DNA from: an uncultured cyanobacterium
Lineage (GTDB): Bacteria; Cyanobacteriota; Cyanobacteriia; Cyanobacteriales; Cyanobacteriaceae
Direction: 5' to 3'
DNA length: 64,000 bases
Assembly (NCBI GenBank): GCA_963749915.1
Contig: CAVVOP010000022.1
Location: 224,001-288,000, forward strand
The position numbers and the translations under genes are program-made. This document shows, piece after piece, positions 8,482 to 50,003 of this stretch (the stretch's first letter is position 1; each line of letters opens with the position of its first letter). The notes beneath the pieces are model-generated. The model did no database searches. It was not told the origin of the DNA and saw only the letters and a list, made by a program, of their open reading frames with translations.

Positions 8482-8679
8482 TAATTTTCTTTTCTATATA
8501 TGGATAAATTTTTCTGAATTTAACTATTAATTTAACTATTTAATGTTTTTTTAAAAGACGCAAAAAAATAAGAGTTTTTTATTTTTAAGCTTATTTTCTA
8601 CTAAAAATATTCTACAGGAATTAAGGTGTGCAGTGCGTCTTTCTACATAAATTGTTAAATATTTAATTACTTATTTCTA

Positions 8680-8714
8680 ATTACACCTCGTTCACCGATT
8701 TCAAAATTAGTTAG
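8680..8714 (+). repeat. left terminal inverted repeat
   Basis: ATTACACCTCGTTCACCGATTTCAAAATTAGTTAG. Confidence 0.8.
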
Positions 8715-8746
8715 GAAAATTAGGTATAGTTCTGCTTCTCCTAGTA

Positions 8747-8818
8747 AATTAACGCCCAAGCTCACCGGCGGCAATCGAGCGCAGCGGAATTGCCGTCCGG
8801 TGCAGCGCCTTGTTATGT
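8747..8818 (-). other. integron attC recombination site (72 bp)
   Basis: minus strand ACATAAC-AAGGC-GCTGCACC-...-GGTGAGC-TTGGGC-GTTAATT: R'', 5-bp spacer, L'' with one extra G, palindromic core, L', R'; the gene's TAA stop lies inside R''. Confidence 0.9.
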
Positions 8819-10876
8819 GTTTTCTGCATATTTTATTGATAACTCATCTTCAAAATCGAAGGTTGTCAGAGCTTGCTTAATTCTGTCAAATTTGCCCATA
8901 TTGTCAATGTTTGCTTCAATGAAATAAGTGTCATTTATTGGAACTGCTTGTCTTAATCCCTTTTCTCTTGGATTCTTTGTCAAACTAATTCGCTCACCCA
9001 AGTCGGATGTGAAAAATGTTTCAGGTTGAAGCTCAAAAAGCTGTTTAAAGACTTCCACATAAAGTTTCGCTACTTGATTAACTTCAATTTTTTGGTCAAA
9101 GAAAATGGCATACTCCAATTTTTTATGTTTTGGATCGTCAGCTTCAAATATATTTAGTTCTCCATTGTCTCCGTTTGTTTCAATCTCTATTTGAGGGTAT
9201 TCCCATATTTTCAAGAATCGTTCTGAAATCAAGTCAAAGCGTCTTTCAATTTCTGTCTTGTCCCATTTGTCGAGGATTGAAAGGTATTTGTTAATCCATA
9301 ATCGGCTGTCTTTATATCCCGCTCCGTCTAAGTCTCTTTTATGAATAAATGGTTTATTTCCGAGTTTGCTATTATTACCCGATAAAGTCAGATTGCCAAT
9401 GGTGTTCAGATAATTTTCTTTGATAAAGATGTATTCGTCATTGCCCAATTCCATTTTCCATTTTGGGTCAGGATTCTGAGGAAAGATGTGTTCAATTGTA
9501 ATATCTGGATTTCCTTCAATGGCTACTCTCTCTCTATTTTCATAGTTCTCAAGTCTTTCAAGTAGATAAATCCTATTCTTAGATTTAATGTTGTAAACGT
9601 CTTTAACCTTTAGAGCGTCAATAACTTCTGCATTCTTTGGAAAACGCTGAACACCTGACCTTTGTAGTAATGATTTTTGAATTGAATAAAGATAATTGTC
9701 CGACTCTACTTTGTCGTAGAGGCTCATGAATATCTTGTTCAGGGCATTAGTTGGTAAACCAAGAATAAATCTTCTCCATGTAAATGACTGGATTAAGTCA
9801 AGGACTTTTAAAAAAGTGGGTTTATCAATAATTGATGAAACAAAATCATCATATACTTTCATCAGGAAAGGGAAAGCAACATTAATCTCAAGGCGGTTGA
9901 TATACTCCAATTGTAGGCGTATATCTTTGTCAGGCTCATTTTTGGGATTAATCAATTTGTTATAGTGTTTGACCAGTCCTTTTATTCCTGTCAGATTACT
10001 TTCAAGTTCGTCTATTGATGTTGTCGGGTATTTTGTTTTAAACTCAAGATACACTTTTCCCTTATTGGGTATTTTTTTGTTCTCTAAAGTCAGATAGTCA
10101 CGGATATAGTCGGAAACTCGGCTAACATTAAGAGTTTCGTCCTTTGCAAGCTTTTCAATGACTTCCCAATAGTTTTGATAAATGTTGTTTTGGTCTCTGC
10201 GGTTCAGACCCATCAAGATATAATTTCGGATTAAGTCTGCCTGAGACAATTCTAAGCCTGTTGAATTAAGGCTTTCAAAAATTCTTTGAGGATCGTCTTT
10301 TTCTCTGTCAAGTGAAATTTCAACAAACATGAGCTTTGAAAGACCTTTCAAGATGAATTGATAATTTTCTTCAGTAATTCTTCCCTTGAAGTAATTGAAG
10401 TTGTCAACGAGCTTGGAGAAATCAGGGAAATCTTCATTATCGTCACTTCTTAAAAGATATTTCAACGCCTTATCATTATTCTCAGTAGGTCTTAGTTTCA
10501 GCTTTTCTTCTTCTGGGACAAATTTGTTTATTAGGTATGTTTCGCTTATTTCATTTACAAGCTCTTCGTCTTTTAATTCTTTAGCAAGCCTGTGAAGAAC
10601 CAAGTAGATGAGTGTTAGTGTTGTCAATCTTTGTTGACCGTCAATCACCGTCAATTCTTTAATTCTTGAAGCTGTGTAAACATCATCATGAACATAAACT
10701 ATGCTACCGATAAAGTGAGCATTCATTTCGTTATTTGTGCCGACTTCAAGAATGTCGTCAAGTAGCTGTTTACATTGCCCTATTGACCAATCATAATTTC
10801 TTTGGTAAACAGGAATTACGAACTGAGTCTTATTTGATGATAAAAAGTCTTCTACTTTGGTTTCGTTTGCTTTCAA
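8813..10876 (-). CDS. GmrSD-family (DUF262 + DUF1524/HNH) putative modification-dependent restriction endonuclease with an extra C-terminal domain
   Basis: IPVYQRNYDW, IDGQQRLTT, IFESLNSTG (GmrS); TIEHIFPQ, IGNLTL..NSKLGN (GmrD HNH); TTG start at 10876 after an AGGA RBS, downstream of the cassette core site. Confidence 0.9.
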   Translation of the reverse strand: MKANETKVEDFLSSNKTQFVIPVYQRNYDWSIGQCKQLLDDILEVGTNNEMNAHFIGSIVYVHDDVYTASRIKELTVIDGQQRLTTLTLIYLVLHRLAKELKDEELVNEISETYLINKFVPEEEKLKLRPTENNDKALKYLLRSDDNEDFPDFSKLVDNFNYFKGRITEENYQFILKGLSKLMFVEISLDREKDDPQRIFESLNSTGLELSQADLIRNYILMGLNRRDQNNIYQNYWEVIEKLAKDETLNVSRVSDYIRDYLTLENKKIPNKGKVYLEFKTKYPTTSIDELESNLTGIKGLVKHYNKLINPKNEPDKDIRLQLEYINRLEINVAFPFLMKVYDDFVSSIIDKPTFLKVLDLIQSFTWRRFILGLPTNALNKIFMSLYDKVESDNYLYSIQKSLLQRSGVQRFPKNAEVIDALKVKDVYNIKSKNRIYLLERLENYENRERVAIEGNPDITIEHIFPQNPDPKWKMELGNDEYIFIKENYLNTIGNLTLSGNNSKLGNKPFIHKRDLDGAGYKDSRLWINKYLSILDKWDKTEIERRFDLISERFLKIWEYPQIEIETNGDNGELNIFEADDPKHKKLEYAIFFDQKIEVNQVAKLYVEVFKQLFELQPETFFTSDLGERISLTKNPREKGLRQAVPINDTYFIEANIDNMGKFDRIKQALTTFDFEDELSIKYAENT

Positions 10877-10896
10877 TTCTTTAATTCCTGTTTTCG

Positions 10897-10905
10897 ACAC
10901 ATAAC
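10897..10905 (-). other. cassette 5' core (R') site G/TTATGTGT
   Basis: exact 9-bp complement of ACACATAAC at the attC R'' end (8812-8820). Confidence 0.8.
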
Positions 10906-10939
10906 TTATAATTGTACCGCAAGTGCAGTATAACACTTT

Positions 10940-10952
10940 CAGGACTTACGCA
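10940..10952 (+). repeat. CAGGACTTACGCA IS-end-like motif
   Basis: motif recalled from cyanobacterial IS/MITE termini; no partner copy seen in the window. Confidence 0.4.
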
Positions 10953-11139
10953 AGAGAAAAAAAAGAAATAGCTATAACCCTTGTCAGTAGGTTTAAAGGC
11001 AAGACAGCGATCGTTATAACCTTCCATTGAGATTAGTTAATGGTAAAATTAAGGAGAAAATAGTTTTCTAATCTGATTTTAGAATATCTTTTATTTATTG
11101 TGTTAGACGGCGTTAAAAAGTTCGATGACAAACTATTAT

Positions 11140-11174
11140 CTAATTAATTTTGAAATCGGCGAACGGGGCGTAAT
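11140..11174 (-). repeat. right terminal inverted repeat
   Basis: reverse complement ATTACGCCCCGTTCGCCGATTTCAAAATTAATTAG; ends 2 nt from the trpA stop codon. Confidence 0.8.
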
Positions 11175-11176
11175 CA

Positions 11177-49893: not shown

Positions 49894-50003
49894 AAAAATC
49901 ACCTTCCACATTATAACTCATTGTTCACCCATTTTGTTCTAGGGTGGCAAAAAAAAGTCGTTTAAACTAACTCAGAGTTAGCTCATAGTCTAGTTTGAGG
50001 TGA

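Follow-up and report, generated by a model that had tools for sequence, protein, structure and literature searches.

An integrase-less integron piece with a GmrSD-type gene between IS1634-subgroup ends in a cyanobacterial chromosome: a likely stranded relic

We analysed a 64,000-nucleotide stretch of DNA, called the window here, from an uncultured member of the Cyanobacteriaceae (GenBank assembly GCA_963749915.1, contig CAVVOP010000022.1, positions 224,001 to 288,000 of the forward strand); positions below are those of the window. The gene content of the assembly and the named relatives of its elements likewise point to a cyanobacterial host. Between trpA and a gene for a TRAP solute-binding protein, a pair of inverted repeats frames a segment of 2,489 bp with a 687-aa gene. 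This is the only long ORF between the arms and no transposase ORF accompanies it, in agreement with the preliminary description of the locus. Read on the minus strand, the parts follow each other in the order right end, 48 bases of spacer, IS701-type end, attI stump, cassette, 38-bp tail and left end. They are listed here by position:

8679..8682, plus strand: left copy of a likely 4-bp target duplication, AATT, from the sequence and in the register of 14 of 19 related end pairs
8683..8714, plus strand: left 32-bp terminal repeat of the IS1634-subgroup type; 18.7 bits, rank 11 of 9.38 million positions
8715..8752, minus strand: 38-bp tail beyond the attC crossover, with an AGGAG motif, from the sequence; no homolog found
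8747..8818, minus strand: attC site with its G/TT crossover at 8753/8752 and an R'' box that overlaps the stop codon of gmrSD; top-scoring attC of the genome
8813..10876, minus strand: gene for a fused GmrSD (DUF262-DUF1524) protein of the type IV restriction type, 687 aa, TTG start, intact frame; Pfam
10899..10905, minus strand: 5' core site of the cassette, GTTATGT, by sequence exactly complementary to R'' of the attC; the G/TT crossover falls at 10905/10904
10905..10939, minus strand: 35-bp stump of a true attI of "type B", its upstream repeat and intI missing; by comparison with loci L085, L186 and L187
10940..11091, plus strand: IS701-type element end that truncates attI; inner limit from one metagenome contig (contig 13, run X2)
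11092..11139, no strand assigned: 48 bp inside the right end; no informative match
11140..11171, minus strand: right 32-bp terminal repeat of the IS1634-subgroup type; 26.3 bits, rank 4 of 9.38 million positions
11172..11175, plus strand: right copy of the likely target duplication, AATC, from the sequence, 1 bp before the trpA stop codon

The preliminary description had reported an inverted match between positions 8680 to 8714 and 11140 to 11174, and we confirmed it at 31 of 35 positions. The best 35-base inverted matches in 60 random 3-kb windows of the same genome reached 22 to 29 of 35, so the repeat is real and lies above the chance level. Its length was overstated: the repeat proper is 32 bp long (8683 to 8714 and 11140 to 11171, 28 of 32 positions identical), and the outer three bases of each arm are target DNA, 35 bp having been read because ATT is shared by both flanks. 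Similarity between the arms ends after these 32 bp, and there are no inner partner ends. Both arms had also been described as reading outward to TA, as in a TA target duplication. From the 35-base limits the left end does so, but the right end reads CA, and some related ends follow a G (L054, L057). The flanks, AATT and AATC, instead fit a 4-bp duplication with one mismatch (3 of 4). Perfect 4-bp duplications occur at that same register in 14 of 19 related end pairs. Eight of these perfect pairs belong to MITE copies in two genomes and are hence not independent; L047 (no partner), L121 (contig edges) and a solo end on contig C11 were omitted from the count. In the left end, a G common to all 14 reference ends is changed. 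The right end, which is present beside trpA in sequencing runs X1 and X2, is polymorphic, with one substitution at 11152 in these runs.

As described earlier, the repeats bracket an attC, an intact gmrSD gene and its core site. The attC scored best of 25 candidates in a heuristic scan of the genome; the scan recovered only some of the attC sites in control loci, so that the genome count of two is a lower bound. A complete cyanobacterial integron, L102, contains an attC that agrees with this site at 63 of 65 positions; the hairpin of the site has a z score of about -2. The arrangement is that of an integron gene cassette: the gene is followed by an attC with paired R boxes, and the 5' core of the GTTRRRY type is complementary to R''. 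The 38-bp tail beyond the crossover is possibly the cut 5' end of a next cassette. Upstream of gmrSD, no promoter stood out above chance (8 sites versus 9.3 expected), and Rfam gave nothing meaningful. The exact attC and attI patterns were absent from the metagenome and viral contigs, and plasmid searches with the non-coding parts yielded weak matches only.

The encoded protein scored 133 bits for GmrSD_N and 85 bits for GmrSD_C in Pfam and contains VIDGQQR, FxxxN, IEHIFPQ and IGNLTLSGNN. These agree with the motifs given for the family in the accessible part of PMC4619093, namely DGQQR and FxxxN in DUF262 and (E/D)HxxPQ plus NL in DUF1524; matches to the longer strict pattern ending in xLL, and to the KK that closes NxxFxxKK, are inexact. 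The window protein thus shares both domains, with their nucleotide-binding and HNH motifs, with the fused GmrSD type IV restriction enzymes of that source, and differs from those described there by about 100 extra C-terminal residues with no Pfam match. Its closest database proteins are 94 to 97% identical, the named ones being labelled Saprospiraceae, Balneolaceae, Clostridiales and Streptococcus, whereas the gmrSD homologs in the host's own family are 61 to 73% identical, lack attC sites and are not cassettes. Because of this difference, the sequence comparisons indicate that the cassette is a recent import. Homologs of about 90% identity in a marine run continue into the same attC. On the strength of its family and intact motifs, gmrSD is probably the working part of the unit today, a candidate nuclease against modified phage DNA, and its intact frame is the likely reason why the shell is kept.

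The preliminary description had also proposed a landing site for cassettes, and in this it was right, as the core site is that of a real, truncated attI. That attI and the IS701-type end at 10940 had both been overlooked. Among 31 intI loci, 27 of them with the 5' end, we distinguished two types of attI upstream of intI; of 251 genomes belonging to the order, 28 had IntI matches (E values up to 1e-60). The stump is identical at 28 of 32 positions to the attI beside intI in L085 and also resembles that of L105. By this comparison the core site belongs to a true attI of a type unlike the host's own, which rules out that the cassette sits at a secondary site. Intact attI sites carry a second repeat 20 bases upstream, which is missing in the window. 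Searching 300 genomes with a pattern derived from type-B sites added three more; although the pattern makes this search circular, the surroundings of its matches do not depend on it. In one case the site lies next to an intI remnant and is followed by two attC sites, and another genome holds two copies, one of them followed by an attC. Type-B attI heads attC arrays in L186 and L187. With 3 mismatches allowed, the exact attI was not found in 200 other genomes. Integrase-less attI sites that have cassettes but no framing ends occur in L187, L188 and on contig C13 of the host.

In the type-B loci L085, L105, L183, L184/L187 and L185, attI contains an internal palindrome, and the IntI of this type is 52 to 57% identical to the common type. 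In two genomes (G272, with two copies, and G238), type-B attI has no intI nearby.

The terminal 15 bases of the IS701-type end at 10940 also flank an IS701 transposase in L193 (NF049921, 378 bits). There are 15 sites in the genome with such an end at no more than one mismatch, and three MITEs of 91 to 111 bp in the assembly have ends of this type. In metagenome run X2, two contigs with loose ends before 10902 read as the start of another cassette after the same attI sequence, and two with loose ends behind 10939 fit the 20-base spacer of an intact attI; these contigs cannot be tied to the trpA contig, to this locus or to this organism. There is no intI at the locus, which is thus not a complete integron, and no intact IntI in the assembly, where three intI fragments, 75 kb away and beside the other attI type, were all that we found.

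We assigned the terminal repeats to a family with an end matrix built solely from 14 ends of seven transposase-bearing elements, all in other genomes. The window ends ranked 4th and 11th of 9.38 million positions, and one block-shuffled genome contained none so high. By these scores they are of the type of a cyanobacterial IS1634 subgroup characterised by an NF033559 transposase and 4-bp duplications. Autonomous relatives of 1.83 to 1.87 kb (L136/L169, L151 and L153) have a 32-bp repeat at each end, laid out as the arms of the window are. The unit thus resembles NF033559-coding cyanobacterial elements of about 1.85 kb in its ends and differs from them in lacking a transposase. The NF033559 model, with a cut-off of 100 bits, scored 318 bits for L169 and 281 bits for a 578-aa ORF of the host; L074 is above the cut-off as well. 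That ORF, enclosed by host IS copies with related ends that we found with a relaxed end pattern, is the one intact transposase of the subgroup in the assembly (contig C10), and the ends of that IS match those studied here at 16 to 19 of 32 positions. The preliminary description had envisaged an autonomous IS with the same ends; within the genome this is the nearest. The assembly is very rich in IS: the IS1634 model matches it 95 times and the IS982 model 15 times. For IS1634, a 2008 table (PMC2266710, in part) gives AT-rich duplications of 5 to 6 bp and a C start; the present subgroup departs from that table because it shows instead 4-bp duplications and an AC or TC start. The end alignments in the supplement of that paper may already list it.

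The relaxed pattern also detected MITEs of 220 to 259 bp with related ends in other cyanobacteria. They form a family (L046 to L057, L042) with IS1634-subgroup ends and 4-bp duplications and reach at most seven matches per genome. The idea that the two arms of the window are the "left" ends of two MITEs was dropped, as autonomous elements show the same motif at both ends.

We searched for further copies of the ends. At up to nine mismatches, the 4.69-Mb assembly contains the two arms of the window and one more distant, solo copy on contig C11; two short look-alikes elsewhere lie inside genes and are due to chance. With 28 of 32 positions in common, the window ends are closer to each other than to the next closest ends of the genome (26 and 25 of 32), and they share private features seen in no other end there. 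This speaks against two independent copies of a common repeat, the case named at the outset as one that would overturn the proposal. As many as 57 positions score at least 14 bits as subgroup ends, and the convincing inward-facing pairs among them are four IS1634 copies and the pair of the window. Other pairs, empty or with different cassettes, had been anticipated; the assembly contains no second pair of window-type ends, filled or empty. With as many as three mismatches allowed, such ends were likewise absent from 19 further genomes of the family, and the metagenome and viral contigs contained none either. A collection of species genomes gave one exact match to the ends, a 220-bp MITE, and matches in four of 400 other genomes of the phylum were all MITE ends or truncated ends. 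No autonomous element with exactly these ends was found in the assembly, these 19 and 400 genomes or the metagenome and viral contigs.

Two solo IS1634-type ends of the genome (G000:C11:25383 and window position 49916), for which no partner end was found, directly adjoin foreign-looking genes. These are P-II-like and sterol-desaturase-like genes, and a repeat-rich gene of the calcium-binding type.

A trpA-TRAP region free of the 2.5 kb had been expected in relatives. Among 30 other genomes, the two genes are adjacent in G007 only, with a 248-bp spacer that could not be aligned as an empty site (65 of 300 shuffles score equally well). None of the four sequencing runs examined, of 20 listed, contained a contig joining the flanks without the element; runs X1 and X3 belong to a single study and are possibly close to the sample from which the genome was obtained. 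Run X2 showed no coverage of gmrSD, which carries no weight because only about 37% of it was read. We also compared 27 other integron loci of 9 to 16 kb each, 25 from other genomes and two from the host. None is framed by an IS-type inverted pair around attI, two raw pairs proving to be a palindromic repeat and a second attI. Enclosure alone means little, because some inverted pair also encloses the centre in nine of 40 16-kb windows placed at random in this genome, which is rich in IS.

A reading to which we give a probability of about 0.6 is that these 2,489 bp represent the shell of a single IS1634-subgroup IS, the inside of which has been replaced by a cut-out integron piece, and that it is now stranded. 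The attI stump, the gmrSD cassette with its canonical attC, the 38-bp tail and the IS701-type end inside mark the cargo as such a piece rather than as a cassette dropped into a site of a MITE's own. From this arrangement we infer the order of the nested insertion and deletion. The matching core sites show that an IntI put the gmrSD cassette into attI. An IS1634-subgroup element would have inserted just after the trpA stop, duplicating 4 bp, and the duplication would since have decayed. Its transposase-bearing inside would then have given way to the integron piece, which the IS701-type end trims at one margin and which stops at a cut some 30 bases beyond attC at the opposite margin; the shell may have been filled where it now lies, or earlier and then have made one last jump. 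As the genome has retained no transposase for these ends and no IntI, the unit would now be stranded. The IS1634-type scores and the autonomous members with 32-bp repeats and NF033559 transposases argue for this reading, as do the mutual similarity of the ends, the 4-bp duplications of related pairs, the match of the stump to an attI beside intI and the X2 loose ends at 10902 and 10939. The single copy, the reduction of intI to fragments and the unframed state of all 27 other integron loci are also consistent with it. Against it, the two target copies are not identical and alignment of an empty site did not succeed, so that a single insertion is inferred rather than seen; moreover, no autonomous element with the exact ends turned up, unpaired subgroup ends are numerous and random windows are often enclosed. 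That the unit is stranded is judged from an assembly of 34 contigs, in which one intact subgroup transposase, that of C10, is present.

The abundance of unpaired subgroup ends, some of them beside foreign genes, would also suit another origin, in which an integron relic, acquired by recombination of taken-up DNA, lies by coincidence between two solo IS1634 ends that are unrelated and point towards each other. The frequent enclosure of random windows, the imperfect duplication and the unframed attI sites with cassettes in L187, L188 and C13 are compatible with it. We nevertheless consider it unlikely, as the ends share 28 of 32 positions and private features, their variant was found in none of the 19 family genomes or the metagenome and viral contigs, and the two flanks can be read, in the correct register, as copies of a single AAT(T/C) target. 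We also find it quite improbable that the locus is a live unit with two tiers of mobility, whose IS1634 ends move by a borrowed transposase while attI still swaps cassettes by a borrowed IntI. All the cis parts would be at hand (paired ends, a near-duplication, the attI core and an intact attC), IntI genes occur in the order, and in run X2 this attI sequence precedes another first cassette, while the right end is found beside trpA. However, there is one copy and no second shell, the ends of the only intact subgroup IS match poorly (16 to 19 of 32), the left end is changed at the invariant G, attI has lost its upstream repeat and no intact IntI remains; the X2 loose ends are not tied to this locus or organism, and no other integron locus is framed. 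To the same slight degree we would credit the wider proposition that cyanobacterial IS1634 shells with a minimal attI exchange defence cassettes, this locus being one of them and other strains holding other cassettes. Least probable by far is a MITE derived from IS982, to which the ends had been likened, or from a TA-duplicating, IS630-like element. The IS982 consensus AC(N)6T(N)5TT (PMC7335449, in part) does share with the ends the initial AC and the T at position 9, and the genome has its 15 IS982-transposase-family matches. Positions 15 and 16, however, are GA in both ends rather than TT, and the ends of the host's IS982 copies are spaced differently and match at no more than 19 of 32 positions in chance-level alignments. 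A TA-type element is at odds with the right end, which is not followed by TA, and with the related ends preceded by G. Above all, the similarity of the ends to repeats that flank IS1634 elements far exceeds background.

The label MITE, used in the preliminary description, does not suit the stranded shell: it has IS-type terminal repeats and no transposase, but at 2.5 kb and with a gene it is neither short nor non-coding, and it is not dispersed in copies. Mobile insertion cassette (MIC) is the fitting term (PMC6199540 and PMC3129680, as far as accessible). Like MIC231 of the Bacillus cereus group, the unit consists of two IS ends that flank a passenger gene without a transposase, within the 0.7 to 3 kb given in the accessible part of PMC6199540; it differs from MIC231 in that its ends are of the IS1634 rather than the IS231 type, what it carries is part of an integron, and the genome was not found to contain an IS with matching ends. 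It also resembles the IMU and NFM2 MITE-flanked class 1 integrons of Proteobacteria (PMC3184786 and PMC3575428, both in part), in which a defective integron without integrase likewise lies within transposon-derived ends; here the defective integron comprises the attI stump, cassette and attC. Those units are flanked by two whole, identical MITEs of 288 or 439 bp with 5-bp duplications, whereas the present locus has one pair of 32-bp ends, an attI stump that is not of class 1 and a location in a cyanobacterial chromosome. Movement has been demonstrated for IMU in these sources, while the present unit is known from its sequence. A third parallel is with CALIN and other integrase-less remnants (PMC4889954 and PMC8618304, in part), which similarly have attC cassettes with no neighbouring intI and IS nearby (38% of CALIN in PMC4889954); the present locus differs in having a single attC instead of a cluster and in keeping an attI stump. 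Integrons in Cyanobacteria, their integrase-less remnants and the link to IS are thus already published in these two papers, and two bioRxiv preprints, seen in part, describe integron defence cassettes. In searches of an open-access library of papers, we found no IS1634 ends around an integron and no framed cyanobacterial integrons.

Most likely, then, the unit is a stranded relic that keeps a defence gene and is MIC- or IMU-like at best. The earlier proposal that it re-mobilises defence cassettes in trans met with checks that were negative or empty, and with several negatives and no support for repeated re-mobilisation, the feature as it stands is one well-dissected relic. It illustrates a route by which an integron defence cassette, 94 to 97% identical to proteins labelled as from distant phyla, enters a cyanobacterial chromosome without a working integrase, and it brought out a second cyanobacterial attI type that often lacks intI. 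Mobility of the shell, if true, would extend IMU- or MIC-style mobilisation of integrons to a new IS family and phylum.

The genome contains two other integron relics. A decayed integron 67 kb upstream of the window (G000:C22:154300-157250) has a type-A attI and an intI in three fragments of about 330 bp, the N-terminal one 89% identical to the IntI of L093; its cassette is McrB-like and frameshifted and is followed by a broken second gene. The third relic (G000:C13:920-3900) comprises a type-A attI without intI, a two-gene cassette resembling a restriction-modification system, an attC and a short MITE-like repeat. All three relics of the genome contain defence-type genes. In addition, a foreign-looking Fic-domain gene with a broken methyltransferase-like neighbour lies beside a housekeeping gene at G000:C22:526600-528200.
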